Shown: positions 1 through 15,644 of the stretch, piece after piece
Position numbering within the stretch: the first letter of the stretch is position 1
Layout of the letters: each line of letters opens with the position of its first letter
Origin: Actinomycetota bacterium
Lineage (GTDB): Bacteria > Actinomycetota > Acidimicrobiia > Spongiisociales > ZC4RG35
Direction: 5' to 3'
Assembly (NCBI GenBank): GCA_052390035.1
Contig: JBQTHI010000109.1
Location: 1,401-65,400, forward strand
DNA length: 64,000 nucleotides
Made by a program: the position numbers and the translations under genes
The notes under the pieces: model-generated
Database searches by the model: none
Told to the model about the DNA's origin: nothing
Seen by the model: the letters and a program-made list of their open reading frames with translations, nothing else

Positions 1-486
1 GAACACCGAACCTAGTAGCGGGTGGTAGCCGTCGCGGTACTTGGCGTTCGAAGTTGTGTACGTGACGGCGCCCATGGTCCGCCCATGAAAAGCGCCGCGG
101 AAGACCACGATGCCCTGGCGGCCGGTCACCTTCTTGGTCAGCTTGACCGCCGCCTCCACCGCCTCCGCTCCCGAATTGGCGAAACCGAACTTCTCGATAG
201 GGGGTGGGGTGATTCGGGCCAAGCGCTCGGCTGCCTCGACCAGGGTGTCGTAACGAAAAACGCATCCGGAGTGGATGAAGCGATCTAGTTGGGCGTGGGC
301 CGCAGCTACCACTGCCGGGTGGTTATGACCCAGATTGGTGACGGCCGTTCCGCAGGCGAAGTCGGCGTATCGGCGTCCGTCGGCGGTGTGAACCCAGATG
401 CCCTGGGCGCGCTCGGCAACGATCTCGGTGTCGAAGTTGATCACCTGAGCGATTAATTGGCGGTGGCGGTCGAGTAGGTCGGTCAT
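1..486 (-). CDS. Class III (PLP-dependent) aminotransferase, N-terminal part; gene continues beyond window start
   Basis: Minus-strand translation from ATG at 486-484 gives MTDLLDRHRQLIAQVINFDTEIVAERAQGIWVHTADGRRYADF...GRQGIVVFRGAFHGRTMGAVT, with the GabT/ArgD-like FHGRT motif. An AGGAG RBS lies 6 nt upstream. It is not in the ORF track because it runs off the window edge. Confidence 0.6.
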   Translation of the reverse strand, partial: MTDLLDRHRQLIAQVINFDTEIVAERAQGIWVHTADGRRYADFACGTAVTNLGHNHPAVVAAAHAQLDRFIHSGCVFRYDTLVEAAERLARITPPPIEKFGFANSGAEAVEAAVKLTKKVTGRQGIVVFRGAFHGRTMGAVTYTTSNAKYRDGYHPLLGSVF

Positions 487-656
487 TCGTGACTCCTGGT
501 AGGCGGGTCATAGGTCGGGGAATCGAGGCGAAACCTCGACTACGGTGCCGCGAAAAGACCTGCCCGCCCACGGCGAGGGGGGGACGGGCGAAGGTCACGA
601 GCCATGGCCGGGATTCTAGTTGAAGCACACCATGAGCCGCGGAGGCCCTGCCGTTG

Positions 657-1034
657 TTATGCGAAGAAGTCGGTGATGACGGCGGTGTCGTCGGAAAAGG
701 CCCAACGGTGGGTGATCTTGCCGTTGCTCACGTGATAGATCTCGGCGGTCTTGTAGGCGAGGGTACCTTTCGGTCCGGTGGCATTGGCCCGGGCCAGCGC
801 CACCATGTGGGCGTCGTTGGCTATCACATCATGAAGGTCTACCTTGACCTGCCAATTACTACCGAGTCCCATCATCCTCTCTTGCAGTGCGGCCTTGCCC
901 CGGATCGGCTCGCTTGAACCGATCTCCCACCACTCGACGTTGTCGTCGATCATGTCGGCCCAGGACTCGAAGTCCCCTGAATCGAATGCCTTACTCACCG
1001 TTCGATATTTGGCAGCGTTGGGATGGTCCTCCAT
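657..1034 (-). CDS. NTF2/SnoaL-like (ketosteroid-isomerase fold) protein
   Basis: 125-aa ORF with the SnoaL-like pattern (DMIDDNVEWWEIG...GKITHRW). A strong RBS GGAAGGAGGG precedes the ATG at 1034. Confidence 0.6.
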   Translation of the reverse strand: MEDHPNAAKYRTVSKAFDSGDFESWADMIDDNVEWWEIGSSEPIRGKAALQERMMGLGSNWQVKVDLHDVIANDAHMVALARANATGPKGTLAYKTAEIYHVSNGKITHRWAFSDDTAVITDFFA

Positions 1035-1075
1035 GAGCCCTCCTTCCTAGGGTACGACCCGAAGCTACTCGCGCC

Positions 1076-1816
1076 ATGCATCAACAAGACGAAGAAGCTG
1101 AGCTTGACCGACTCTACGCGGCGCCCCGCGAAGAGTTCGTCAAACTCCGCAACGATCTCGCCAGCCGGCTGCGGAAGGAGGGAGATCAGAAGGCCGCCAA
1201 CCGGATCGGCCGGCTGTCGAAGCCGACGGTTTCTGCATGGGTAGTGAACCAACTCGTTCGGAACCGCCAGCTCGACGCCCAACGCCTAATCAAGGCGGGA
1301 GAGTCTCTTGAGCAAGCCCAACAGGCGGCATTGTCGGGAAGTCCTCGAGGCTTCGAGGCGGCTCGGCAAGAAGAAGGCGCCGCTGTTCGGTTGCTGCGGG
1401 CGGCGGCGGCTGAGACTCTCCCGTCGGTCACGTCAGCAGTCCTCGATCGGGTGGTCGTGACTCTGCGCGCCGCGGCGGCGACAGCCGCCGGGCGCAAACT
1501 CCTCGAGGAAGGGCGGCTGACCGACGACCTCGAACCGGTCGGATTTGGCGCTTTCACGCCGATGGGATCAACCGCCCGGGAGGAGCAGCCGGTCTCGGCC
1601 AGGATGGAAGCCCTCCGCCGACGCAAGGAGGAGGCAGATGCCAAGGCTGAGGCGCGGGCCATCGAGGCCCGGGATTTGGATCGGGCAGCGCGCGAGGCTG
1701 AGCAGGTGGCCAGTCGGGCGGCCCGGGCGGCGGCAACCGCTCGCAAGCGAGCCGAAACAGCCGCCGAACAAGCGCGACGGGTACAGGCGGAAATCGCCGA
1801 AGCGTCGAAGGAATAG
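1076..1816 (+). CDS. Hypothetical Ala/Arg-rich protein with coiled-coil C-terminus
   Basis: 246-aa ORF. The N-terminal half is conserved-looking (LYAAPREEFVKLRNDLASRLRKEG). The C-terminus is A/R/E-rich and low complexity. No family recognised. Confidence 0.45.
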   Translation: MHQQDEEAELDRLYAAPREEFVKLRNDLASRLRKEGDQKAANRIGRLSKPTVSAWVVNQLVRNRQLDAQRLIKAGESLEQAQQAALSGSPRGFEAARQEEGAAVRLLRAAAAETLPSVTSAVLDRVVVTLRAAAATAAGRKLLEEGRLTDDLEPVGFGAFTPMGSTAREEQPVSARMEALRRRKEEADAKAEARAIEARDLDRAAREAEQVASRAARAAATARKRAETAAEQARRVQAEIAEASKE

Positions 1817-1828
1817 TCGAGTGGCCGA

Positions 1829-2461
1829 TTAGAGCGGGGTTCCCACCTCAACCAACCCAGCCAACTCGATCAGTCCCGCCGCGGCCGGGATGAGCAGAGC
1901 CAAGCCAATCATCTTGCGACCCCAGTGAAAAGAGGGACGGATCAAGGTCCAGGCCATCAGGGTCATAACGATCACTCCAGCGGGCAGGGCCAGCCAGGTC
2001 CAGCGGGAAAAGCTGAAGAGATTCACGGCCACAATCCAAGTGGTGCCCCAGAAGAGCCCGAGGACCCCGGCGGCAACGCGGGGGATGGGTCGGGCTTCTT
2101 CCCGACGCCTGCTCCAGACGATGAACCCGAGGGCGACAAGAAGGCCTCCCATGACGTTGGCCTCGACTGCCAGCGTCCGTTTGGAGAGAAGTTTGGCGTC
2201 ACATTCCAACAGGATCACGCCTGGTTGATCGCCCAAGTCGCCGGCCGACTCAATCCTGGCGGTGGCCTCAGATTGGCTATCTGCGGGCGTCCCACAGAAG
2301 TAGCTGTCGCCTTCCCCCGCCGGCGTGAAAACCGGCGTGCGGTAAAGCGCTTGCGCGCCCACCAGGCAGAGGCCTGCCAGCAAGAGGAGACCGAGGCCGG
2401 CGTATCGAAGCGGGTTGGAGGCGGGCCGGGTCGATCTCGCGGGAGCTGTGATGGTCTTCAA
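1829..2461 (-). CDS. Hypothetical integral membrane protein
   Basis: 210-aa ORF with about 5 hydrophobic segments. Uses a TTG start in the track, so the real start is uncertain. Confidence 0.4.
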   Translation of the reverse strand: MKTITAPARSTRPASNPLRYAGLGLLLLAGLCLVGAQALYRTPVFTPAGEGDSYFCGTPADSQSEATARIESAGDLGDQPGVILLECDAKLLSKRTLAVEANVMGGLLVALGFIVWSRRREEARPIPRVAAGVLGLFWGTTWIVAVNLFSFSRWTWLALPAGVIVMTLMAWTLIRPSFHWGRKMIGLALLIPAAAGLIELAGLVEVGTPL

Positions 2462-2539
2462 AGGTGGGTCCCCCTCTTGTGAGATTTTACCGTTCTGGCC
2501 CCCAGCGATGTCAACAGCGCGAACGATGTCTGCCTGCGG

Positions 2540-2577
2540 CTAACTTGACAGTGATAACTGAGGCACGATAACTTGAC
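2540..2577 (+). promoter_or_regulatory. Candidate mmpL promoter with TAACTTGAC direct repeats (possible TetR operator)
   Basis: TAACTTGAC at 2541-2549 and 2569-2577. -35 TTGACA (2545-2550), 17-nt spacer, -10 ATAACT (2568-2573). Confidence 0.3.
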
Positions 2578-2597
2578 GCCGCTAACCAAGGAGATTG

Positions 2598-4790
2598 ATG
2601 GCAGGGTTTGCGGGATGGATCGTGCGGCGTCGGGTTCCCGTGTTGATAGCAAGCGTGCTGGTGATGTTGGGCGCCGGGTATCTCGGAGGCGGCGTTGCCG
2701 GGCGCCTCTCGAGCGGGGGATTTGAAGACGAGGGGGCAGAATCTTTTGCAGCGGCCGAAACCCTCGCCGAACAGTTCGGGGTGGGGGTGCCAGACATCGT
2801 CATCGTCGTCACCAACCCGGCGGGATCGATCGACAGTGCGGAGGCGGTAGCCGGAGGCACGGCGCTCACCCAACAGCTAGCCGACGAGGATCAGGTGGCC
2901 GAGGTCACCTCCTATTGGTCGCTCGGGTCACCAACTTCGTTGCGGAGCCAGGACGGAACTCGAGCGATGGTTTTTGTTTCGGTCGAAGGGAACCAGGCCG
3001 AGGTGCTGGCGAGGTCGGGTGAGCTTGCCGACCTTTACCGAGGCGAATTCCGCGGTCTTGATGTGGCGGTGGGCGGTAGTGGGCCGCTGTTCGCGGAGGT
3101 CACCGAGACTGTCGAAAGCGACCTGGTCAAAGCCGAAACCATCGCCTTTCCGCTCACCTTCATTCTGCTGATCCTGGTTTTCGGTTCTCTGGTGGCAGCA
3201 CTGCTTCCCCTAGGGGTAGGCGCCTTCGCCATCGTCGGAACCTTCCTGGCATTGGACCTCATCGCCCGCCTAACCGAGGTGTCCATTTTTTCGCTGAACC
3301 TCACCACCGCCCTCGGGTTGGGGTTGGCGATCGACTACGCCCTATTTGTCGTCAGCCGTTTCAGGGAAGAACTCGCCGCCGGCCACGAGGCACAGGCCGC
3401 GGCTGTCAACACCGTGCGCACCGCCGGGCGGACCGTGCTCTTTTCGGCGGGAACGGTGATGGTTTCGCTGGCGGCGATGATCGTCTTTCCTCTTGCCTTC
3501 CTTCGCTCGTTTGCCTATGCCGGGATGGCGGTGGTTGGCCTGACCGCGCTCGGCGCCGTCGTTGCCTTGCCTGCCCTGCTGGCCGTCCTCGGCCGCCGGG
3601 TCGACCGGCTCGCCATTCGCCGGGGCGCGGAAACCCGGAGCAAGGTCTGGCACCGGGTCGCCCTCGCTGTGATGAAGAGGCCAATTCCGATCGCCACCGC
3701 CGCCGTGGCACTGCTTGCCTTCCTGGGGCTCCCCTTCCTCCAGGTCAATCTGGTCCAGTCCGACGATCGGGTTCTTCCTCCAAGCTCACCCTCCCGCCAG
3801 GTCGGTGAGGTCCTCCGGGCCGAGTTCAACTCATTCGAGTCATCGGCCATCCAGGTTGTGGCGCCGGAGACAGACGAGCCCGTGGCGGTGGCCGACTATG
3901 CCACCTCCCTTTCCGCCCTGGATGGGGTGGCTCGGGTCGACACCACGACCGGAAGTTATGTGGGTGGCATTCAGGTGGTCCCCGCCGGTCCGGCTCATGC
4001 GCGCTTCAGCAACGGCGCTGGTACCTACTGGTCCGTCGTACCCGCCGTCGACCCCGGCTCCGAGGAAGCAGAAACCCTGGTCCACGAGGTCAGATCCCTC
4101 GATGCCCCGGGGGAAGTGCTGGTGGGCGGGGTGACGGCCGACTTGGTCGACACCAAGGCCGCGCTTTTCTCTCGACTGCCCGTGGCTCTTGGCTTCATCG
4201 GGCTGGTCACCTTCGTCGTGCTGTTCCTCATGTTCGGATCACTGCTGGTACCGGCCAAGGCGGTCGTTCTCAACCTCCTGTCGTTGTCGGCCACCTTCGG
4301 GGCGCTGGTGTGGATCTTCCAAGAGGGCCACCTGGCCGATCTGCTCGGGTTCACTCCGACCGGAGGACTTGATCTCACCGTCCCGATCCTCATGTTTGCC
4401 ATCGCCTTCGGCCTATCAATGGACTACGAGGTCTTCCTCCTCTCCCGTATCAAAGAGGAGCACGACTCCGGGGCGGATGACATCGGAGCCGTCGCGATGG
4501 GATTGGAGCGAACCGGGCGGATCGTCACTGCAGCCGCGGCTCTGATCGCCGTCGTGTTCATCGCCTTCGCCACCTCGCAGGTGACGATGATGAAGATGTT
4601 TGGAGTCGGCATGACTCTGGCGGTTCTCGTCGATGCGTTCATAGTCAGGGCAGCGCTGGTGCCGGCTTTCATGCGTTTGGCCGGTAGGGCCAACTGGTGG
4701 GCACCGCAATGGCTACGACCGATATACCGCCGTTTCGGCTTCAGTGAATCGTCCACGCCTCGCCTGGCCGGCAGCTGGGACCGAGTATGA
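2598..4790 (+). CDS. mmpL: MMPL-family RND transporter
   Basis: About 730 aa with 12 predicted TM helices and two MMPL-type periplasmic loops. ATG at 2598 follows AAGGAG at 2587-2592 (the track TTG at 2595 is less likely). Confidence 0.85.
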   Translation: MAGFAGWIVRRRVPVLIASVLVMLGAGYLGGGVAGRLSSGGFEDEGAESFAAAETLAEQFGVGVPDIVIVVTNPAGSIDSAEAVAGGTALTQQLADEDQVAEVTSYWSLGSPTSLRSQDGTRAMVFVSVEGNQAEVLARSGELADLYRGEFRGLDVAVGGSGPLFAEVTETVESDLVKAETIAFPLTFILLILVFGSLVAALLPLGVGAFAIVGTFLALDLIARLTEVSIFSLNLTTALGLGLAIDYALFVVSRFREELAAGHEAQAAAVNTVRTAGRTVLFSAGTVMVSLAAMIVFPLAFLRSFAYAGMAVVGLTALGAVVALPALLAVLGRRVDRLAIRRGAETRSKVWHRVALAVMKRPIPIATAAVALLAFLGLPFLQVNLVQSDDRVLPPSSPSRQVGEVLRAEFNSFESSAIQVVAPETDEPVAVADYATSLSALDGVARVDTTTGSYVGGIQVVPAGPAHARFSNGAGTYWSVVPAVDPGSEEAETLVHEVRSLDAPGEVLVGGVTADLVDTKAALFSRLPVALGFIGLVTFVVLFLMFGSLLVPAKAVVLNLLSLSATFGALVWIFQEGHLADLLGFTPTGGLDLTVPILMFAIAFGLSMDYEVFLLSRIKEEHDSGADDIGAVAMGLERTGRIVTAAAALIAVVFIAFATSQVTMMKMFGVGMTLAVLVDAFIVRAALVPAFMRLAGRANWWAPQWLRPIYRRFGFSESSTPRLAGSWDRV

Positions 4791-5520: not shown

Positions 5521-6663
5521 ATGCGGATCGGGATCTTGACCGGCGGGGGCGATGTCCCCGGACTCAACGCCTGTATCAAGGCGGTCGTCAACCGGGTGGC
5601 GGGGGAAGGGCACCAGGTAGTGGGAATCCGCCGCGGTTGGGGTGGGCTGGCCGACACCAATCCCGAGGATCCCGCCACGATTGAGGCGAATCTGATCACC
5701 CTCGATCCCAGCACCGTCCGCACGGTCGATCGGACCGGCGGCACGTTCCTCCACACCTCCCGCACCAATCCGGGCAAAGTCAAAGCTGTTCCCGAATTCC
5801 TTGCCGCCCGCTACACGGACGGTGGCCCCCACGATCTCACCAGCCATGTTCTTTCCGTGCTGGAGAGCCAAAAGATCGACGTGCTCATCCCAATTGGTGG
5901 AGACGACACACTCTCTTATGGCCTGAGGATGCACGAGGAAGGTGTGCCCGTTATCGCCGTTCCGAAGACCATGGACAACGATGTTCACGGAACCGACTAC
6001 TGCATCGGGTTTTCGACCGCGGTGACTCGGGGGGTGCAGTTCATACACAGCCTGCGAACCGCCACCGGATCACACGAGCGGATCGCGGTGGTCGAGCTTT
6101 TTGGGCGTTACAGCGGGGAGACATCGTTGATCACCGGTTATCTGGCCGGTGTCGACCGGGCCATCATCTCCGAAGTCCCCTTCGACATCACCAAGCTGAG
6201 CGGGATGCTGATTGATGACAAGCAACGCAATCCGTCCAACTACTCGATGATGACCATCTCCGAAGGCGCCCGGCTCCTCGAAGGTGAGATGCACCTGGCC
6301 GGGGAGGCCGATGCATATGGGCATCGCAAATTGGGCGGGGTCGGCGCCTTGATCGGTGAGCTGCTCAAAGAGGCAACCGGTGAAGACGTGGTGTACCAGC
6401 AGATCGGTTACCTGATGCGCTCCGGCGCCCCCGACTCCCTCGATTTGATGGTGGCGACCAATTACGCAGTGATGGCCGCCGACCTTGCCTTAGAAGGAGG
6501 TACCGGTCGGATGGTTGCCCTGCGCGGCGGCACCTACACCCACGTGCCTATCTCGGTGACTAGGGAAGGGGTGAAACGGGTCGATGTCGACGAGCTATAC
6601 GACATCGAAACCTACCGCCCCAAGGTACGCCACGTGCTGGGCAAACCCATGTTCCTCTACTAG
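5521..6663 (+). CDS. pfk: 6-phosphofructokinase, probably PPi-dependent type
   Basis: [17 protein letters not shown]...IGGDDTL...PKTMDND...FGRYSG. GGDD and PKT in place of GGDG/PGT are the known PPi-PFK determinants. GGAGG RBS lies 6 nt before the ATG at 5521; the longer track ORF overlaps tetR. Confidence 0.8.
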
Positions 6664-6689: not shown

Positions 6690-7712
6690 TCAAGACCGGG
6701 AGGTCACGCGGACTCCCGAGCCTGAGATCACCCGGCCAATCACCTGAGCTTGGTGGCCGATCTCGGCGCAGAGACGATCGGTGGCATCTGGCGAGACGAT
6801 CAGGCAGAAGCCGATCCCCAGGTTAAACACTCGGACCATCTCATCGTCGGACACGTCTCCCCAACGCTGGAGGACTCGAAAGGTTTCCGGCACCGGCCAG
6901 TGCTGGTCGAGGATCACCCCGAGACCGGTTGGCAGGATGCGAGGAAGGTTGCCGATCAATCCTCCGCCGGTGATGTGGGCGCCGGCCTTTACCCCTCCCC
7001 CGGACAACGCCGATATCACGGCCGGGGCGTAGACGACAGATCGATCGAGCAAAACCTCACCGATCGAAGCTTCGGCCCCAGGAAAACCGTCATCGAGCGA
7101 ACGGTCTCCGATTATCGCCCGGACGAGCGAATAACCATTGGAGCGCAGGTTGGGCGAGGCCAGTCCGATGACCAGGTCGCCTGGGGCGACCCGGTGGGCG
7201 CCCAGCTCCTGGCCATGTTCGACCACCCCTAGCCCGGTCGCCGCCAGGTCGACCTGGTCCGGTTCCATGATCCCGGGGTGTTCAGCGGTCTCGCCCCCGA
7301 GGAGCGGGCATCCCGCCTCCGAACATGCACGGGCAATAGAGGAGATGATGGTCACGTCCCGTTCCTCGTCGAGCGCTCCCACCGCCATGTAGTCGACCAG
7401 ACCGATGGTCTGCGCTCCGGCGGCGGCGAGATCGTCCACCACCATCGCCACCAGATCAAACCCGACGCCATCCCAGCGGCCTGTGCGGCGAGCCAGGTCG
7501 AGCTTGGTCCCGACTCCGTCGGTGGTCATCATCAGCACCGGCCGGTGATAACCCAAAGGGACGGTCACACCGGCGGCAAACCCCCCGAAGCCGCCTATCA
7601 CACGAGCAGACCAGGTGGATGTCACTAGTGGGCGTATCAGGTCGACATGTCGGTCTGCCCCCTCAAGGTCAACGCCGGTCGCCCGATAGGTGGTCGGGCC
7701 GTCCGCGGTCAT
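6690..7712 (-). CDS. purM: Phosphoribosylformylglycinamidine cyclo-ligase (AIR synthetase)
   Basis: MTADGPTTYRATGVDLEGADR...GGFGGF...TDGVGTKL. Start ATG at 7712-7710 overlaps the purF stop (ATGA). The upstream extension in the track is spurious. Confidence 0.9.
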   Translation of the reverse strand: MTADGPTTYRATGVDLEGADRHVDLIRPLVTSTWSARVIGGFGGFAAGVTVPLGYHRPVLMMTTDGVGTKLDLARRTGRWDGVGFDLVAMVVDDLAAAGAQTIGLVDYMAVGALDEERDVTIISSIARACSEAGCPLLGGETAEHPGIMEPDQVDLAATGLGVVEHGQELGAHRVAPGDLVIGLASPNLRSNGYSLVRAIIGDRSLDDGFPGAEASIGEVLLDRSVVYAPAVISALSGGGVKAGAHITGGGLIGNLPRILPTGLGVILDQHWPVPETFRVLQRWGDVSDDEMVRVFNLGIGFCLIVSPDATDRLCAEIGHQAQVIGRVISGSGVRVTSRS

Positions 7713-9145
7713 CTCGCTACGGAGACCGTTGGGATCTCCTCGAGGACGAACTTGCCCGATGCCGCGCCGACGTCCGTCGGATATTCGCCGGATAGGCAGG
7801 CATGACAGAACCCGCCGCTCTTCACCCCGGTCGCCTCGACCAGGCCGGCCAGCGTGAGATAGCCCAGTGAGTCCGCTCCAACATGACGGCGAATCTCCTC
7901 TGTCTCCATCCGGGCGGCGATCAGGGTCGTTCGATCGGAAGTGTCCATCCCGTAGAAGCACGGCCAGCGATAGGGCGGGGAGGAGATGCGCAGATGGACC
8001 TCGGCCGCCCCGCTCTCACGGACCAGCGCCACCAGCTGACGGGTGGTCGACCCGCGCACGATCGAATCGTCGATCAGCGCCACCCTTTTGCCGGCGAGGG
8101 TGGTCGCGATCGGATTCAGCTTGAGACGTACCCCGCGGTCACGTTGCAGCTGGCTCGGCTCGATGAAGGTTCGGCCCACATACCGGTTCTTGACGAGGCC
8201 GTCGGCGTAAGGGATGCCCGACTCCATCGAGAAACCCTGCGCTGCGGGGATGCCCGACTCCGGGACAGGCACGACAACATCTCCATCGACCGGGTGTTCG
8301 AGAGCCAGCCGGCGGCCCATCTCGTGGCGGGCGGCGTGGATGTTGCGACCGTAGAGCTGGGAGTCGGGACGGGCGAAATAGACGAACTCGAACAGGCAGA
8401 GGGAAGGTTCGGTCAGGGAGAAGGGGAAGACCGACCGGAGACCGGAGGCGTCGATCACGACCATTTCGCCGGGTGCAACTTCTCGCACCAGCCGGGCGCC
8501 AACAATGTCGAGCCCGGCCGACTCCGAGGAGAGGACCCAGCCGTCTTCGGCCAGCCGGCCAATACATAACGGCCGAAACCCGTTGGGATCACGCACCCCG
8601 ATCAGGCGGCCCTGATCCATCACCGTCAGAGAGAAGGCGCCCTGGAACGACGGCAAGACGTCGATGAGGGCTCGCTCAAGACCACGCCCATCAGAGCGGC
8701 CGTCTTCTACTGCCCGGCTGATCGCCTCCACCATCAACTCGGAGTCAGTGGTTCCCTGTCCCCGTCCGTATCGGCTGGCAAGCTCAACGGCGTTGGTCAG
8801 ATTGCCGTTGTGGGCAAGGGCGATCGAGGTTTGGCCGACCTGACGATGAATCGGTTGGGCGTTCTCCCATCGAGTCGAGCCCATCGTCGAGTAACGGGTG
8901 TGCCCGATCCCCAGATGGCCGTCGAGCCCGGCCAGCGATGACTCGTCAAAGACCTGGGCAACCAACCCCAGATCTTTGTACACGGTGGCCGTCCGCCCGT
9001 CGGAGGCGGCAATCCCGGCCGATTCTTGGCCACGATGTTGAAGGGCGAACAACCCGAAGTAGATGAGCTGGCTGACCTGGCGCCCCGGGGCATACACGCC
9101 GAAAACGCCACAAGCCTCGCCGGGGCTCGACTGTGGGTTGTTCAC
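7709..9145 (-). CDS. purF: Amidophosphoribosyltransferase
   Basis: CGVFGV N-terminal nucleophile, PRTase domain DDSIVRGSTT, and a C-terminal Cys cluster. Start is uncertain; a GTG at 9145-9143 gives MNNPQSSPGEACGVFGV. Confidence 0.85.
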   Translation of the reverse strand: MNNPQSSPGEACGVFGVYAPGRQVSQLIYFGLFALQHRGQESAGIAASDGRTATVYKDLGLVAQVFDESSLAGLDGHLGIGHTRYSTMGSTRWENAQPIHRQVGQTSIALAHNGNLTNAVELASRYGRGQGTTDSELMVEAISRAVEDGRSDGRGLERALIDVLPSFQGAFSLTVMDQGRLIGVRDPNGFRPLCIGRLAEDGWVLSSESAGLDIVGARLVREVAPGEMVVIDASGLRSVFPFSLTEPSLCLFEFVYFARPDSQLYGRNIHAARHEMGRRLALEHPVDGDVVVPVPESGIPAAQGFSMESGIPYADGLVKNRYVGRTFIEPSQLQRDRGVRLKLNPIATTLAGKRVALIDDSIVRGSTTRQLVALVRESGAAEVHLRISSPPYRWPCFYGMDTSDRTTLIAARMETEEIRRHVGADSLGYLTLAGLVEATGVKSGGFCHACLSGEYPTDVGAASGKFVLEEIPTVSVAR

Positions 9146-9243
9146 CGGACCATGGTATCGAGTTGGCCCCGGCTCAACTGACCATCGACCGGGAGGCAGA
9201 TTCTCCCTCTTGGGGGGACACCCACCGGTTGAGGGGGTAGGGC

Positions 9244-10368
9244 TTAGTCGCCGAGCGCGACACCCAGGCGCCGGGCCGACTCGAGCCATCGGTGGTCAGG
9301 TGGCACCGTCTTCCGCCGTCCGGCGACCTCGGCCAGAGGCACCGAGACAACCTGCTCTCCCTGGGCTGCCACCATCACTCCCCTCTCGCCGCCGGCAATC
9401 GCATCAGCGCACGCTGTGCCAAGGCGAGTGGCCAGTACTCGGTCGACCGGTGAGGGCATCCCTCCCCGTTGGACGTGACCCAGGATCGTCACCCGTGCCT
9501 CGAGCCCGGTCAACGCCTCGAGTCGTTCCGCCATTTGCTCGGTGGAACGGGTCCTTGCTTCTTCGAATTTGAGCAATGCGGCCCTCGCCGCATCCTCATC
9601 ATCGTCACTCTTCGCCTCATCGACGGCAATGCGGAGTTGGTCGTGTTCGGCCCGTTCGGGACCCGACATCGCGCCCTCAGACACCACCACGATCGAAAAT
9701 GAGCTGCCCCCGGCTTTGCGCTGCATAACCGAGTCGGCCACCGCCTCAACCGAATAGGGGATCTCTGGAGTGAGGATGGCGTCTGCACCTCCGGCCAGGC
9801 CGGCTCCTAGGGCTAGCCAGCCGGCGTTGTGCCCCATCAACTCCACGACCATGATCCGGTGATGGGAGTGGGCGGTCGAGTGGAGCCGATCCACCGCCTC
9901 GGTGGCGATGCCCAGGGCGGTATCAAACCCGAACGAGGTGTCGGTTCCCCACACATCGTTGTCGATCGTCTTGGGAAGGGTGATGACCGGAATCCCCACC
10001 TCCCAGAGCCGCAATGCGTTCTTCTGGGTGCCGCCCCCGCCCAGGCATACGAGGGCTTCGAGGTCGTGCTGCTCGACCACCTTCCTGATCATCGGCCTCA
10101 TGTCCATCGGACGGCCATTGCCCACGTCCATGCGGTGGACCTTCTCTCGGCTGGTGCCGAGGATCGTGCCGCCCTTGGTGAGGATGCCGGAGAGGGTTTC
10201 GCCGTCCAGGCGGATGAAGCGATTCTGCATGAGTCCGCGGAAGCCGTCTCGAAAGCCGATCACGTGCATTCCATACGCACGTTGGGCGGCTTTGCCCACC
10301 GCCCGGATGGCAGCGTTCAGCCCAGGTGAGTCTCCGCCGGCGGTGAGAATGCCAATGGTTTGCAGCAC
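9244..10368 (-). CDS. Phosphofructokinase-family paralog (A-family, atypical active site, acidic insertion)
   Basis: [24 protein letters not shown]...LGGGGTQ...LPKTIDND...MGHNAG. Aligns cleanly to PfkA but has GGGGT where GGDGS is expected and H where the F6P-binding R of MGR is expected. It also carries a roughly 35-aa acidic insertion ([39 protein letters not shown]). Confidence 0.8.
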
Positions 10369-10480
10369 CAGGCAGATTTTAGTTCGGGGCGGCCAGGGCT
10401 TCTGGTCGAAGGGTGCATCCCAGCCGACATGTGCACCGATTAGTCAGTAGGTTCAGGGCTACTCGAGACGGAGTCAGCTC

Positions 10481-10882
10481 ATGTTCGTACCCATCACCGC
10501 CGATGACCTCTCGCATGTGCCTTTGTTCGCAGGGCTCAGCCGCGACAAGCTGGAGAAGATCGCTGCACAGTCGGTCCGCATCTCGGTTCATCCCGGCATC
10601 CACCTGGCCAAGCAGGGTGATCCGGGGTTCGACTTCTTCATCGTCCTCGACGGTGCCGCCGACGTGAAGCGGGACGGAGAGACGATCGCCACCTTGACCG
10701 AAGGGGAGGTCTTTGGGGAGATGGCCCTTCTCGGAGGGCGGCGTCGCAATGCCGACGTGGTGGCAACCACTCCGATGACTTTGATGACCATGATGGTGTG
10801 GGATTTTCGATCGATCACCGACAACTATCCGGTGATCCACCAGCGCCTGGAGGAGTTGGCCCAGAGTCGCTCCGACGCCTGA
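10481..10882 (+). CDS. Stand-alone cyclic-nucleotide-binding (CAP effector) domain protein
   Basis: 133 aa with FGEMALLGG....ADVVA, the canonical cNMP-binding signature. No DNA-binding domain. Confidence 0.75.
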   Translation: MFVPITADDLSHVPLFAGLSRDKLEKIAAQSVRISVHPGIHLAKQGDPGFDFFIVLDGAADVKRDGETIATLTEGEVFGEMALLGGRRRNADVVATTPMTLMTMMVWDFRSITDNYPVIHQRLEELAQSRSDA

Positions 10883-10883
10883 A

Positions 10884-10937
10884 CCCGTGGAGAGTCCGAG
10901 CGGCCCGGGAGCGAAGCGACGCGGCCCGAACCACGGG
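10884..10937. terminator. Candidate bidirectional terminator hairpin between convergent cNMP-binding gene and purL
   Basis: CCCGTGG ... CCACGGG inverted repeat enclosing GC-rich sub-stems in the 66-bp convergent intergenic region. No clean U-tract. Confidence 0.25.
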
Positions 10938-10948
10938 GGTATTGCTCG

Positions 10949-13165
10949 CTACCCAAGCAGCGAGGGGAGCGCTTCCTTCCAGGCTCGGGTCGCAAGCTCG
11001 AGATCGACGGTGGCTCCCAATCCGCCCCGGTCGAAGCTGATTTGATCCCCGCGGAGGAACCCGATCCGGACGGCTGGGATGCCCGCCTCACCGGCCACCC
11101 GCTCAACCTCGGCGCTCCGTTCGGTGCTGACCGCAAGCACGAAGCGGTGGGGGTCCTCACAGAAGAGATGTCGCCAATCGCCGTACTCGACGATGGCCCC
11201 GACCCGAGAGGCGATGCATATCTCGGAGACGGCCGTTGCCAAACCACCGAGCGAAATGTCGTGGATAACCGGGATGCCGGCTTGGGCGAGCCTGCGGGCT
11301 ACCACCAGCGCCGACCTAGCCATGGTTGGGTCACCGGCCGAGGGCCGTCCGCCGACGTGGCCGAAGGCGACCTTCTCAAAGGCGGATCCGGCCAGGTTGA
11401 TCGCCCATACCGTTCCGACCAGCCACAACTCCATGCCGGCCGCCCCCCGATCGAGCCTCGGCGGGGATGGAGGCATCGGGTCGGCAACTCCCAACATGCC
11501 GACCACCGGAGTCGGGTAGATGTCAAGCCCGTCGGTCTCGTTGTAGAAGGACACATTGCCCCCGATGATGGGGATGCCGAGCGCCTCACATGCCTCCGAG
11601 AGACCTTCTACCGTTTCTCGGAACTGCCACATCACCTCCGGTTTCTCCGGGTTTCCAAAGTTCAGATTGTCCACTAGCGCCTTCGGCTCGGCACCGGCCA
11701 GGGCAACGTTGAGAGCCGCTTCGTAGACGAGCCGGGCTGCTCCCCGTCGGGGGTCGAGGTAGCAAATACGCCCGTTCCCATCGGTGGTGAGAGCTAGAGC
11801 TTTGTTGGTGCCCTTCAACCGCAGCAGTGTTGCGTCGTGTCCGGGGCCGATCACCGTGTTGAGAAACAACATGTGGTCGAATTGTTCGTACGCCCATGCC
11901 TTACTGGCCAGTTCCGGATCGGAGAGCATCCGGAGGAGAGCCGAGGCGATGCCCGGCTGCGCAACGAACTTGACCGTGTTTGCCCACAGATCCTCCATCC
12001 AGCCTGGCTCTCCCATCGGTCGCTCGTATCGGGGCGCCCCCTCGGCCAAGGAGCCGGCCGGGACATCAACCACCTGCTCTCCCCGATGGAAGACCCGCAC
12101 CCGATCGCCGCTCGTGACCGTACCAACCCGGGAGGCGGTAATTTCATGGCGGGCCGCCACCTCGAGCACCTCATCCACCGAGTCTTCGGAGACAAATGCC
12201 ATCATCCGTTCCTGCGATTCGGAGGTGAGCAGCTCGGCGGCGGTCATGCCCGGCTCGCGGACGTGGACCTGGTCGAGGTCGATGTCGATCCCCACCCCGG
12301 CGCGGGCGGCCGGCTCGGACACGGCGCAGGAGAGGCCGGCGGCGCCCAGGTCCTGGATGCCGATCACCAGCTTGCGCCGGAACAACTCGAGACAGGCCTC
12401 GATGAGCTTCTTTTCCTCGAATGGGTCACCGACCTGGACAGAAGGCCGTTTATGGTCCGACTCCTCGACGAACGGAGCCGACGCCAGCACCGAGGCACCT
12501 CCGATGCCGTCCCGCCCGGTGGCAGCCCCGAGCAACACCGCCGCCGATCCCTCGGTCCCGGCGGTGGCGAGCATCAGTTCGTCGTCGCGGAGCAGACCAA
12601 GACACATGACGTTGACAAGCGGGTTGGTCGAGTAGTGCTCGGCGAAGGCGATCTCCCCGCCCACGGTCGGTACACCCACCGCGTTTCCGTATCCGGCGAT
12701 CCCGGCGACGACTCCTTTGAACAAATACCGGTTGCGAGGCTGGTCGAGGGGGCCAAAACGGATGGAGTCCCACAAGGCGATCGGACGGGCGCCCATGGTG
12801 AAGACATCGCGGAGGATGCCACCCACCCCGGTGGCAGCCCCCTGGTAGGGCTCGACCATAGAAGGATGGTTGTGGCTTTCGATCTTTAGAGCCGCCAGCC
12901 AGCCATCACCGATTTCTATCACCCCGGCGTTTTCGCCGGGCCCCACCACGACCCAGGGTGCCGCGGTCGGAAATCGTTTCAGATGGATCCGCGACGACTT
13001 GTAGGAGCAATGTTCGGACCACATGACCGAATACATCGCCAGCTCGGCGGAGGAAGGCGGGCGTTCGAGGGTGGTCACTATCTGAGTGAATTCGTCGTCA
13101 CTCAGGCCGAGGCGGTGGTGGAGCGATTCCGGTTCGGCGGCGACGGCCTCCTCGTCGTCGGTCAC
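10949..13165 (-). CDS. purL: Phosphoribosylformylglycinamidine synthase subunit PurL
   Basis: 738 aa with AIR-synthase-related tandem domains. Start overlaps the purQ stop. Confidence 0.95.
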   Translation of the reverse strand: MTDDEEAVAAEPESLHHRLGLSDDEFTQIVTTLERPPSSAELAMYSVMWSEHCSYKSSRIHLKRFPTAAPWVVVGPGENAGVIEIGDGWLAALKIESHNHPSMVEPYQGAATGVGGILRDVFTMGARPIALWDSIRFGPLDQPRNRYLFKGVVAGIAGYGNAVGVPTVGGEIAFAEHYSTNPLVNVMCLGLLRDDELMLATAGTEGSAAVLLGAATGRDGIGGASVLASAPFVEESDHKRPSVQVGDPFEEKKLIEACLELFRRKLVIGIQDLGAAGLSCAVSEPAARAGVGIDIDLDQVHVREPGMTAAELLTSESQERMMAFVSEDSVDEVLEVAARHEITASRVGTVTSGDRVRVFHRGEQVVDVPAGSLAEGAPRYERPMGEPGWMEDLWANTVKFVAQPGIASALLRMLSDPELASKAWAYEQFDHMLFLNTVIGPGHDATLLRLKGTNKALALTTDGNGRICYLDPRRGAARLVYEAALNVALAGAEPKALVDNLNFGNPEKPEVMWQFRETVEGLSEACEALGIPIIGGNVSFYNETDGLDIYPTPVVGMLGVADPMPPSPPRLDRGAAGMELWLVGTVWAINLAGSAFEKVAFGHVGGRPSAGDPTMARSALVVARRLAQAGIPVIHDISLGGLATAVSEICIASRVGAIVEYGDWRHLFCEDPHRFVLAVSTERSAEVERVAGEAGIPAVRIGFLRGDQISFDRGGLGATVDLELATRAWKEALPSLLG

Positions 13166-13821
13166 GTATTGGAGCTCACCGCTAGGGGCCGACTGGCCAG
13201 GCCCGCCAGCAGGAGCCGCCCATCGGTCGAGCCGAGGATCTCTTCACAGGCCCTCTCGGGATGAGGCATAACTCCAACCACATTGCCGGCCAGGTTGGAC
13301 ACGGCCGCGGCGTCCCCTTCGGCACCGTTCGGGTTGTCGACATACGTCAAGACGACCCGAGCGGTTCGCGAGGGGTCGACATAATTGCCTTCGTATGAGT
13401 TGAGAGGCATGCGGACAACGGCTCCCGGATCGACTTCGGCGGTGAGGAAAGAGTCGTTGGACACGACCGCCAGTTCTACCCATCGGCAGATGAACGAAAG
13501 CCCGGAATTGGCGATGAATGCTCCCGGCAGCAGCCCCGCTTCGCACAAGATCTGAAAGCCGTTGCAGATCCCGAGCACCGGATATCCGGAGGCAGCCATG
13601 CGCCCGACTTCCCTCATCACCGGTGAGAGACAGGCGATGGCACCCGTCCGTAGGTAGTCGCCATGGGCGAAGCCGCCGGGCAAGACCACCGCGTCGAAGC
13701 CCGCGAGGCTCTGCTGACGATGCCACACGAGCTGGGCGTCAAAACCCATCGAATCGAGGGCGAGGTGGGTGTCGAGCTCACAATTGGTGCCGGGGAAGAC
13801 CACCACTGCGACACGGGTCAC
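13162..13821 (-). CDS. purQ: Phosphoribosylformylglycinamidine synthase subunit PurQ (glutaminase)
   Basis: MTRVAVVVFPGTNCE...GICNGFQIL GATase motif. Overlaps purS and purL by 4 nt each. Confidence 0.95.
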   Translation of the reverse strand: MTRVAVVVFPGTNCELDTHLALDSMGFDAQLVWHRQQSLAGFDAVVLPGGFAHGDYLRTGAIACLSPVMREVGRMAASGYPVLGICNGFQILCEAGLLPGAFIANSGLSFICRWVELAVVSNDSFLTAEVDPGAVVRMPLNSYEGNYVDPSRTARVVLTYVDNPNGAEGDAAAVSNLAGNVVGVMPHPERACEEILGSTDGRLLLAGLASRPLAVSSNT

Positions 13822-14966: not shown

Positions 14967-15644
14967 ATGCATGTAGCCGTGATCCAACATTGCCGGCAAT
15001 CGACCGCTCGTCTCGACGAGGCATTGGCTGCCGTCGGGGCCGAGGTTGACCGGCTCGATCTCGAATGGGGAGATGCCGTCCCCTTGAGCGCAACTTACGA
15101 CAAGGTCGTAGTGCTGGGCGGGGCCATGGGGGTCTACGACCACCCTCGCTTTCCTTGGTTGGAAGACGAGAAGAAGTGGTTGCGGGACCTGGTAGATCGC
15201 CACGTTCCGGTGTTGGGAATCTGCCTGGGGAGCCAGCTACTGGCCGACGCCCTCGGGGGCCGCGCTCACCTGGCCGAAGAACCAGAGGCCGGGGTGTTCC
15301 CGCTCCAGCTCACCGAGGCCGGTCGCACCCACCCGGTCGTTTCGGCGGCCGGGCAGGTAGTTTTCTCCCTCCATCGCGACACCTTCACCCTGCCTCCCGC
15401 TGCCACGCTGCTCGCTCATACCGATCTTGCTCACCAGGCATTTCAGCTGGGCTCGGCGACGGCCATACAGTTCCACCCCGACGCCGACCTTGACCTCGCC
15501 ATACGGTGGGGGGAGCAGGAAGCGTCGATCCTGGCGGCGGCGGGGGTCGCCTTCGATGACTATGTCAGGGCCTTGCACGAAGCCGATCCCGAGCTCGACG
15601 CCGGCTCGCGACGGTTGTTCAAGACCTGGCTGGCATTGGATTGA
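14967..15644 (+). CDS. Type 1 glutamine amidotransferase-like protein
   Basis: VLGICLGSQLL catalytic Cys motif and an FHPD His motif. Start chosen at MHVAVIQH; the longer track ORF overlaps purC. Confidence 0.65.
   Translation: MHVAVIQHCRQSTARLDEALAAVGAEVDRLDLEWGDAVPLSATYDKVVVLGGAMGVYDHPRFPWLEDEKKWLRDLVDRHVPVLGICLGSQLLADALGGRAHLAEEPEAGVFPLQLTEAGRTHPVVSAAGQVVFSLHRDTFTLPPAATLLAHTDLAHQAFQLGSATAIQFHPDADLDLAIRWGEQEASILAAAGVAFDDYVRALHEADPELDAGSRRLFKTWLALD

Follow-up and report, generated by a model that had tools for sequence, protein, structure and literature searches.

The 64,000-nucleotide stretch of DNA analyzed here (positions 1,401 to 65,400 of contig JBQTHI010000109.1, assembly GCA_052390035.1, from an Actinomycetota bacterium of the class Acidimicrobiia), called the window below, encodes a 374-residue 6-phosphofructokinase (PFK) that represents a large, unrecognized variant of a well-known enzyme family. 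Judged from aligned residues, the positions that hold the sugar and its 6-phosphate are unchanged, while the pocket for the phosphoryl donor and the metal has been rebuilt. We tentatively read this PFK, at slightly less than an even chance, as an active enzyme with a noncanonical donor. The clade to which it belongs forms a distinct and widespread PFK-A subfamily with the signature SRxKP...GG[G/N]G[T/S]x[K/R][N/T]...PKTIDND...MG[H/N], probably of the same type as PfkC of Bacteroides. The gene and its diagnostic motifs are listed below in window coordinates. Residues are mapped to Escherichia coli PfkA in its standard numbering, which equals the numbering from Met1 minus 1; HMMER and MAFFT alignments agree on this mapping, and the coordinates were verified by translation.

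9244..10368, minus strand: PFK-A family gene, member of the GG[G/N]G...MG[H/N] ("PfkC-like") clade, GTG start, 374 amino acids (aa)
10132..10152, minus strand: SREKVHR loop, in which R74 aligns with E. coli R72 and the clade-typical K76, H78, and R79 align with positions 74, 76, and 77
10027..10041, minus strand: GGGGT motif aligned with E. coli GGDGS, with Gly112 at Asp103, followed by Q-K-N (K at 107, N at 108)
9955..9975, minus strand: PKTIDND (in LPKTIDND), aligned with K133 at G124, T134 at T125, the catalytic base D136 at D127, and D138 at D129
9856..9867, minus strand: SHHR (in SHHRI), in which R171 of the protein aligns with E. coli R162, the 6-phosphate-binding Arg, and is kept
9829..9837, minus strand: MGH, aligned with His180 at E. 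coli R171
9460..9483, minus strand: LGHVQRGG, aligned with H249 and R252, which bind the 6-phosphate of fructose 6-phosphate (F6P), both kept

The open reading frame (ORF) is a real PFK-A gene, as the original prediction had held in aligning it with PfkA. It matches Pfam PF00365 over profile positions 2 to 277 of 277 (E = 1.3e-97), its N terminus agrees with the family consensus, and its best solved relative is E. coli PfkA (1pfk; E = 7.7e-67). No clade member was found among the PDB sequence matches, the best of which are all canonical enzymes. An AlphaFold2 model built with 60 homologs shows the normal two-domain PFK fold, with a mean predicted local distance difference test (pLDDT) score of 85 and a template modeling (TM) score of 0.90 to 0.91 to 1pfk/2pfk (~0.9 on the E. 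coli and Bacillus PFKs), and both profile and fold are those of the PFK-A superfamily. Placement within the superfamily is less straightforward. Among NCBIfam models, the protein exceeds the cutoff only of NF002872, the broad subfamily model named "ATP-dependent 6-phosphofructokinase" (389 versus 253 bits), and this single match accounts for the database name. It lies under all equivalog cutoffs: that of the ATP-PFK model TIGR02482 (289 < 371) as well as those that would place it with ADP-type or group III PFKs, namely NF010674, which we take to be the model of the ADP group (314 < 544), and TIGR02483. The models of pyrophosphate (PPi)-dependent PFKs all score far under theirs.

Compared with E. 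coli PfkA, the window protein retains R72, T125, D127, D129, R162, M169, E222, R243, H249, and R252, and it differs by D103G, R171H, G124K, M107K, and G108N, together with a Lys at 74 and a His at 76. The altered positions 103, 171, 124, 107, 108, and 74 all lie on the phosphoryl-donor and transfer side, and the adenine cleft at position 108 is occupied by a non-Gly residue. At the Mg2+-ligand position 103, where PFK-A enzymes carry Asp or Glu (GG[DE]G/D), the protein has Gly112, so that the loss of Asp103 claimed in the original prediction is real, and it proves to be conserved across the clade. The same prediction had taken MGH as a replacement of R162 and concluded that the Arg binding the 6-phosphate of F6P was lost. 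This part does not hold: the Arg of MGR is R171. R162 belongs to SHQRI, which reads SHHRI here with its Arg unchanged, and R243, H249, and R252 are present as well. Realignment of the motifs therefore upheld one of the two losses and showed the other to be a misassigned position. Since the change sits on the donor side, any neofunctionalization more likely concerns the donor than the sugar substrate.

Which donor could such a site accept? The donor signatures of PFK-A enzymes have been given as GGDGSxxG for ATP, GGDGSxxI for ADP, and GG(D/E)D(S/T) for PPi (Shen et al. 2024, PMC11609450), and a 2025 review names the same determinants, noting that residue 108 of PPi enzymes is larger than Gly and that the Lys of PKT alone is not diagnostic. 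The GGGGTQKN of the window protein fits none of the three. Where ATP-dependent PFK-A enzymes (EC 2.7.1.11) have GGDGSxxG and usually Gly124, it has GGGGTQKN and PKT; where ADP-dependent enzymes have GGDGSxxI, it lacks D103 and has Asn at 108; and of the GG(D/E)D(S/T) and PKTIDxD of PPi-dependent enzymes (EC 2.7.1.90) it shares the Lys, with Gly-Gly at 103 and 104, in line with the earlier description of a PKT Lys without GGDD. Noncatalytic PFK-like proteins, which have lost their catalytic base, their substrate ligands, or both, are no closer match, all of these residues being retained. A PFK type with Gly or Asn at 103 or His at 171 is mentioned neither by Shen et al. 2024 (PMC11609450) nor in the 2025 review, and we found no relevant literature on GGNG PFKs, polyphosphate (polyP)-dependent PFK, mutagenesis of Asp103/Arg171, or the PFKs of Acidimicrobiia.

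The variant is a clade hallmark, to judge from its conservation, and neither a chance event nor gene decay. Among the 120 closest homologs (69 to 100% identity, mostly metagenome-assembled genomes of Acidimicrobiia), GGGGT is found in 114 and MGHN in 119, and PKTIDND and LGHVQRGG are present in all 120, which answers positively the earlier question of whether orthologs keep the GGGG/MGH pattern. Conservation was then counted over the whole clade, with 342 unique sequences that represent more than 10 phyla. D127, D129, R162, E222, R252, K124, G104, M169, and G170 are kept in all 342, R72 and T125 in 341 each, and R243 in 340; position 249 is His in 283 and Tyr in 59. By comparison with E. coli PfkA, the donor side is replaced in a consistent manner: position 103 is Gly in 286 sequences, Asn in 47, Asp in 7, and Ala in 2; position 171 is His in 326 and Asn in 16; Lys occupies position 74 in 300 and position 107 in 329; and position 108 is Asn in 295 and Thr in 39. 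The window protein carries every feature that characterizes the clade (His or Asn at 171, Gly or Asn at 103, Lys124, Lys or Arg at 107, Asn or Thr at 108, and an intact F6P site). Such strict conservation over phylum-level divergence implies purifying selection on the catalytic base and the sugar-phosphate site, and as only the donor and metal pocket is rebuilt, a pseudoenzyme becomes less likely.

Positions 103 and 171 change together. Of 94 representatives at ≤50% identity, 55 have Asp or Glu at 103 with Arg at 171, 28 have neither, and the mixed combinations number 5 and 6 (Fisher 3e-13, uncorrected for phylogeny). In a neighbor-joining (NJ) tree of representatives at this identity level, the sequences without Arg171 form one coherent group, with the GGGG type nested within it, and the window protein nests inside the clade. 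Two candidate explanations for the altered residues were discarded. An acidic residue at position 73, beside R72, might have compensated for the lost Asp, yet Asp or Glu occurs there in only ~70% of the sequences with Gly103 and also in some canonical ones. A role of His171 as a phospho-histidine intermediate is unlikely, since 16 of the 342 sequences have Asn.

The clade is taxonomically broad. A profile search and two collection scans recovered the same PFK type at 50 to 68% identity in many groups, and the window protein is 60 to 87% identical to GGGG members of many phyla. Members occur in Acidimicrobiia, Chloroflexota, Verrucomicrobiota, Planctomycetota, Bacteroidales, Spirochaetota, Desulfobacterota, Acidobacteriota, Propionibacteriaceae, and sulfur-oxidizing Beta- and Gammaproteobacteria. 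Among cultured organisms, Sulfuritortus calidifontis, Sulfurisoma sediminicola, Raineyella antarctica, Novipirellula herctigrandis, and Sunxiuqinia dokdonensis each have a member. GGNG combined with MGH or MGN marks a sister set from Treponema, Lachnospiraceae-like gut bacteria, Bacteroides, and Phocaeicola. Some relatives have an unusual architecture: a tandem double PFK of 730 aa (P0121), with a degenerate N-terminal half (GGRN, MGQ) and a PPi-type C-terminal half (GGDD), and two giant proteins of 2620 and 1376 aa (P0123 and P0197) in which the PFK unit (GGDGTHKG/PKTIDND) is repeated three to five or more times.

Among described enzymes, the clade most resembles the short ("40 kDa") group III PFK-A enzymes, which include the ADP-dependent enzymes of cyanobacteria and alphaproteobacteria (PMC11609450), in fold and size class. 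It shares with the ADP-dependent group the Lys of PKTIDND, G104, and a non-Gly residue at 108, and its nearest canonical neighbors in the NJ tree carry the ADP-type GGDG[ST]xxI. However, the clade differs from the ADP-dependent group by Gly or Asn at 103, His or Asn at 171, and Asn or Thr rather than Ile at 108, and from group III PFKs by additional basic residues at 74, 76, and 107. We considered whether the GGNG/MGH relatives could simply be the cyanobacterial ADP-dependent PFK-A enzymes and rejected this, since that group keeps GGDGSxxI. With short PPi-PFKs and the Borrelia burgdorferi PPi-PFK (1KZH/2F48) the window protein has in common the Lys of PKTIDxD, and with the Borrelia enzyme a non-Gly residue at 108 (Asn181 in Borrelia), but both acidic residues of GGDD and R171 are missing from it.

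The closest experimental comparison comes from the gut. Three PfkA homologs of Bacteroides thetaiotaomicron were assayed by Kabonick et al. 2025 (PMC12078602): PfkA (BT2062) and PfkB (BT1102) are ATP dependent, whereas purified PfkC (BT3356) was inactive with ATP and did not complement a pfk-deficient E. coli strain; PfkC was also part of the PPi panel. Gut Bacteroides and Phocaeicola encode GGNGTQKT...MGHK proteins of 335 to 337 aa, with ~44% identity to the window protein and 40 to 42% to E. coli PfkA, and two of these GGNG proteins are annotated "6-phosphofructokinase 3." BT3356 probably belongs to the GGNG/MGH type, to judge from its taxon, the length of the protein, the names used in annotation, and the identity to E. 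coli PfkA. If so, the published inactivity of PfkC matches the motif changes and argues against an ordinary ATP-PFK. The Bacteroides proteins differ from the window protein in having Asn at 103 and in lacking an extension of ~17 aa in the helical hairpin considered next (gap of ~130 versus 164 to 172).

That hairpin is the one structural addition to the fold:

9544..9669, minus strand: clade-specific charged insertion, residues 234 to 275, predicted from the AlphaFold2 model and the alignment to form an alpha-helical hairpin with the canonical helix that follows

About 42 residues (234 to 275) are unaligned with E. coli PfkA. The original prediction of an acidic, helical insertion of ~35 aa before LGHVQRGG was right as to presence and predicted helicity, but the net insertion amounts to ~37 aa against E. 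coli and to only ~17 aa against the nearest PFK relatives, and its acidity is specific to the lineage. In GGGG members, the segment from E222 to LGH is 57 aa long at the median, compared to ~40 in GGNG members, 36 to 40 in canonical group III enzymes, and ~20 in E. coli, and in the clade its helical part substitutes for the D-x-F/Y-G-H...GG-I/V-G stretch of the aligned group III sequences. In the AlphaFold2 model it forms a two-helix hairpin, with helices 236 to 250 and 255 to 287, the second of which runs into the canonical helix (pLDDT ~90). The inserted sequence is poorly conserved and variable in charge, with a median of −9 in the Acidimicrobiia-dominated lineage of the window protein and +1 in other GGGG members. 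In the B. burgdorferi PPi-PFK, the same site carries an insertion of 83 residues, whose helices and hairpin lie over the active site (2025 review). Our alignment to 1kzh breaks at residue 235 of the window protein and chain residue 316. The site, after the equivalent of E222, is shared, while the window protein has a simple two-helix hairpin of variable charge. The insertion is thus a decoration at a known PFK hot spot, one where insertions cover the active site in decorated PFKs, and the charged hairpin probably serves as a lid or interface element that varies among lineages.

In 139 nonredundant clade loci, every ORF lying no more than 3 kb from the PFK was entered into an unbiased clustering of neighbors. 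The most frequent neighbors are restricted to single lineages: dnaX/recR in gut Clostridia, fabF/rnc in Bacteroidales, and pur genes in Acidimicrobiia. After these, polyphosphate kinase 1 (PPK1) is the top neighbor common to several lineages. PPK1 or PPK2 lies ≤700 bp from the PFK in 10 of the 139 loci, in diverse lineages, and in seven of them a Pfam-confirmed PPK1 adjoins the PFK. These loci, numbered by our own labels, are as follows.

L071 (Sphaerochaetaceae): PPK1 45 bp upstream of the PFK
L074: PPK1 and PFK with overlapping reading frames
L084 (Kiritimatiellia): PPK1 and PFK with overlapping reading frames
L090 (Bacteroidales), 9980-13610: PFK(GGNG)-histidine phosphatase-PPK1, with PPK1 downstream, after the small histidine-phosphatase ORF
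L116: PPK1 and PFK with a 4-nucleotide (nt) overlap
L149: PPK1 convergent with the PFK
L155, 5315-9215: small alarmone synthetase (RelA_SpoT domain)-PFK(GGNG)-PPK1, with PPK1 6 bp downstream
L009 (Thiotrichales), L045 (a deltaproteobacterium), and L097: PPK2 within 700 bp of the PFK

A rough expectation under random placement is ~0.35 loci, compared to the 10 observed (Poisson ~6e-12). The PPK-linked PFKs are only 43 to 69% identical to each other, and their divergence, together with the differing gene arrangements, points to repeated and independent association. Clusters of PPK and exopolyphosphatase (PPX) genes are found 3.5 to 7 kb from the PFK in L008 (Sulfuritortus) and L092 (Pirellulales). 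In L008, from Sulfuritortus calidifontis, a CYTH-CHAD protein, PPK1, and PPX are encoded at 1-4430, 5.5 to 10 kb upstream of the GGGG PFK. The operon-like arrangements of L155 and L090 tie a GGNG PFK to stringent-response and polyP modules. The GGGG-type PFK beside PPK2 in L009 shows that Thiotrichales carry this type; a "polyphosphate-dependent 6-phosphofructokinase" is named in a Thiomargarita preprint (bioRxiv 10.1101/2022.02.16.480423), probably a slip for the pyrophosphate-dependent enzyme.

Taken as an active enzyme, the window PFK would still bind a ketose 6-phosphate and transfer a phosphoryl group to its C1 hydroxyl. With the Mg2+ ligand D103 and R171 both neutralized, and Lys or His at 74, 76, 107, and 124 placed in the donor pocket, it would not be a standard MgATP- or MgPPi-dependent PFK and would use another donor or another mode of donor binding. 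The leading candidate for that donor is inorganic polyP or short polyphosphates, since the genes of relatives repeatedly occur next to ppk1 or ppk2, several with overlapping reading frames, and since an acidic residue has been exchanged for a Lys/His-rich pocket with G104 kept open. The Asp103/Arg171 pair would then have given way to a Lys/His-lined channel. A PPi-PFK of another subfamily, TM0289 of Thermotoga maritima, reportedly prefers tri- and polyphosphate and would set a precedent for such a donor among PFK-A enzymes. That the clade as a whole is a polyphosphate- or oligophosphate-dependent fructose-6-phosphate 1-phosphotransferase, a fourth PFK-A donor class after ATP, PPi, and ADP, is nevertheless a proposal that we consider unlikely, if worth stating.

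Several points weigh against a noncanonical donor or its polyP version. Known polyP-dependent kinases generally still require Mg2+, so the loss of D103 is not specifically predicted by polyP use. The roles of D103 as Mg2+ ligand and of R171 as contact of the transferred 1-phosphate follow structural and mutagenesis work on the E. coli enzyme and its UniProt annotation. Some long-hairpin members (L013, L014, L018, L019, and L024) combine Asp103 with His or Asn at 171 (GGDGT..N with MGH or MGN), which suggests that position 103 may simply be dispensable; these members, and L136, where GGNG is paired with MGR, could be intermediates or reversions. The PPK link is found in only ~7% of clade loci, and its absence from all 26 canonical (MGR) loci comes from a control too small to tell the two apart (Fisher p = 0.37). 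No ppk gene was found in the window or near the PFK in other Acidimicrobiia-type loci, and a PPK neighbor could be explained equally well if nucleotides were recycled for an enzyme that uses ADP or ATP. The assignment of BT3356 to the clade is based on annotation, length, taxon, and identity rather than on the BT3356 sequence, and a homolog search aimed at BT3356 returned only near-identical Bacteroides salyersiae sequences. Finally, no clade member has a demonstrated activity on any donor.

The genes around the PFK in the window bear on other explanations.

5521..6663, plus strand: second, PPi-type PFK paralog with GGDD, PKTMDND, FGR, and GYLMRSG (from the alignment)
7709..9145, minus strand: purF, directly downstream of the PFK, with a probable GTG start near 9145, separated by 98 nt from the stop codon of the PFK
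10481..10882, plus strand: stand-alone cyclic nucleotide (cNMP)-binding protein, 133 aa, divergent from the PFK (PF00027, 4.9e-16)
10949..13165, minus strand: purL, upstream, with the order purL...pfk...purF-purM conserved in Acidimicrobiia-type loci

The mechanically called purF ORF (7709-9289, minus strand) begins at an ATG and overlaps the 3' end of the PFK by 46 nt, but the conserved N-terminal Cys (EACGVFGV) suggests that the real start is the GTG near 9145, leaving a gap of 98 nt. The pfk gene is probably cotranscribed with purF-purM. The possibility that a regulatory RNA or a terminator separates pfk from purF was considered and dropped: the interval contains no minus-strand terminator-like site and no Rfam match of note. 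In Acidimicrobiia-type loci, variable unrelated genes (for MFS, enoyl-CoA hydratase [ECH], or alcohol dehydrogenase [ADH] proteins) lie within the purL...pfk...purF order. In three Betaproteobacteria-like loci (L010, L011, and L030), a GGGG PFK stands one or two genes downstream of purF, a proximity that is independent of the Acidimicrobiia arrangement; there the PFK follows a conserved cvpA-purF-(Cys/Met pyridoxal phosphate enzyme) cluster (L010 5896-11092, L011 7202-11110, and L030 6923-11107). A 9-mer, AATCTGCCT, occurs three times in the window versus 0.24 expected, at 9194-9202 (minus strand), 10370-10378 (minus strand), and 15218-15226 (plus strand). The copy at 10370-10378 directly precedes the GTG start of the PFK, that at 9194-9202 precedes the probable start of purF by ~50 nt, and the third lies inside a glutamine amidotransferase (GATase) coding sequence, at its GICLG motif; the recurrence may be chance.

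The divergent cNMP-binding gene starts 112 bp from the PFK start, as originally described. The arrangement recurs in an 84%-identical relative (L005 9524-9928) and is absent outside the closest relatives. The three closest lineages all have cNMP-binding genes flanking the PFK, two of them stand-alone (133 to 134 aa, divergent) and one a CRP-type regulator with a helix-turn-helix domain downstream of the PFK (L007 11171-11854). The second PFK, at 5521-6663, had been described as a canonical PPi-type enzyme; it does carry GGDD and PKTMDND, but R243V, H249Y, and M169F make it less than fully canonical. It lies under all NCBIfam cutoffs (best TIGR02483, 263 < 430), with scores lower than those of the window PFK under study, and may have an altered acceptor specificity of its own. 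No GGDD paralog was found within 10 kb of the PFK in the other clade loci examined, and a heteromer of the two was rejected as a general explanation on this ground.

Three other readings compete with that of an active enzyme with a noncanonical donor. It is possible, though we doubt it, that the clade consists of ordinary nucleotide-dependent PFKs (ATP, GTP, or ADP) in which D103 and R171 are dispensable, Mg2+ is held by phosphates, water, or other residues, and PPK regenerates the nucleotide from polyP. The NF002872 match above cutoff, the invariant G104 as in ATP- and ADP-type enzymes, nearest canonical relatives with ADP-type GGDG[ST]xxI, and the toggling of position 103 among Gly, Asn, Asp, and Ala inside the clade are all consistent with this, and as PPK1 and PPK2 interconvert nucleotides and polyP, a shared operon could serve nucleotide recycling. 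However, no PFK-A enzyme discussed in the papers considered here lacks an acidic residue at 103, the Asn or Thr at 108 is neither the Gly of ATP types nor the Ile of ADP types, scores fall under the TIGR02482 and NF010674 cutoffs, and the probable Bacteroides member showed neither ATP-dependent activity nor complementation.

The same inactivity of PfkC in vitro and in complementation would be expected if the clade were a noncatalytic sensor of F6P or fructose 1,6-bisphosphate, a regulatory subunit, or a scaffold, with PPK, the purine operon, or another PFK as its possible target of regulation; by analogy with the alpha subunit of plant PPi-dependent PFK and the C-terminal halves of eukaryotic PFKs, this is conceivable but rather improbable. 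The loss of the metal ligand D103 and of R171 would fit it, as would the presence of a second PFK gene and a cNMP-binding gene next to the window gene, and in our alignment GGFEA replaces GGDG in the C-terminal half of mammalian PFK. Yet known noncatalytic PFK-like halves lose catalytic-base or ligand residues, whereas D127, D129, T125, R72, and the F6P ligands are kept in at least 340 of the 342 clade sequences across many phyla; pairing with another PFK was found in none of the other clade loci, and the cNMP pairing is restricted to close relatives. A changed sugar substrate is very unlikely. On this account the protein would be a kinase for another ketose phosphate, such as tagatose 6-phosphate or sedoheptulose 7-phosphate (S7P), the latter toward ribose 5-phosphate and phosphoribosyl pyrophosphate for the adjacent purine genes, and it draws on the position of the gene, which lies in the purL-purF interval of Acidimicrobiia-type loci and follows purF in L010, L011, and L030, and on the activity of some PFK-A enzymes toward S7P. 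But every F6P-contact residue of E. coli PfkA is kept, the altered residues are on the donor side, and the S7P-active PPi-PFKs in the literature considered have substitutions at R162 and H249 that the window protein does not share. The purL-purF interval of actinobacteria commonly holds unrelated genes, and that of Acidimicrobiia-type loci does so too, with MFS, ECH, or ADH genes beside pfk. Hence the original view of a neofunctionalized kinase or pseudoenzyme was right that this is not a standard PFK, but the donor side rather than the sugar side has changed, and a pseudoenzyme is disfavored.

The donor specificity of PFKs, ATP versus PPi and since 2024 also ADP, is read from a few motif residues, and this clade fits none of the known patterns, although it is large, spans many phyla, and is routinely annotated "ATP-dependent 6-phosphofructokinase." If its members are not ATP-PFKs, metabolic reconstructions would be wrong at a key glycolytic step in many environmental and gut bacteria, among them Bacteroides, sulfur oxidizers, and Acidimicrobiia. 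The motif changes also offer a concrete sequence rationale for the published and so far unexplained inactivity of B. thetaiotaomicron PfkC, provided that BT3356 is the clade member it appears to be. Should polyP prove to be the donor, this would be a new donor class with a direct link from polyP to glycolysis, and ppk1 and ppk2 would couple polyP stores directly to upper glycolysis or gluconeogenesis across many phyla.

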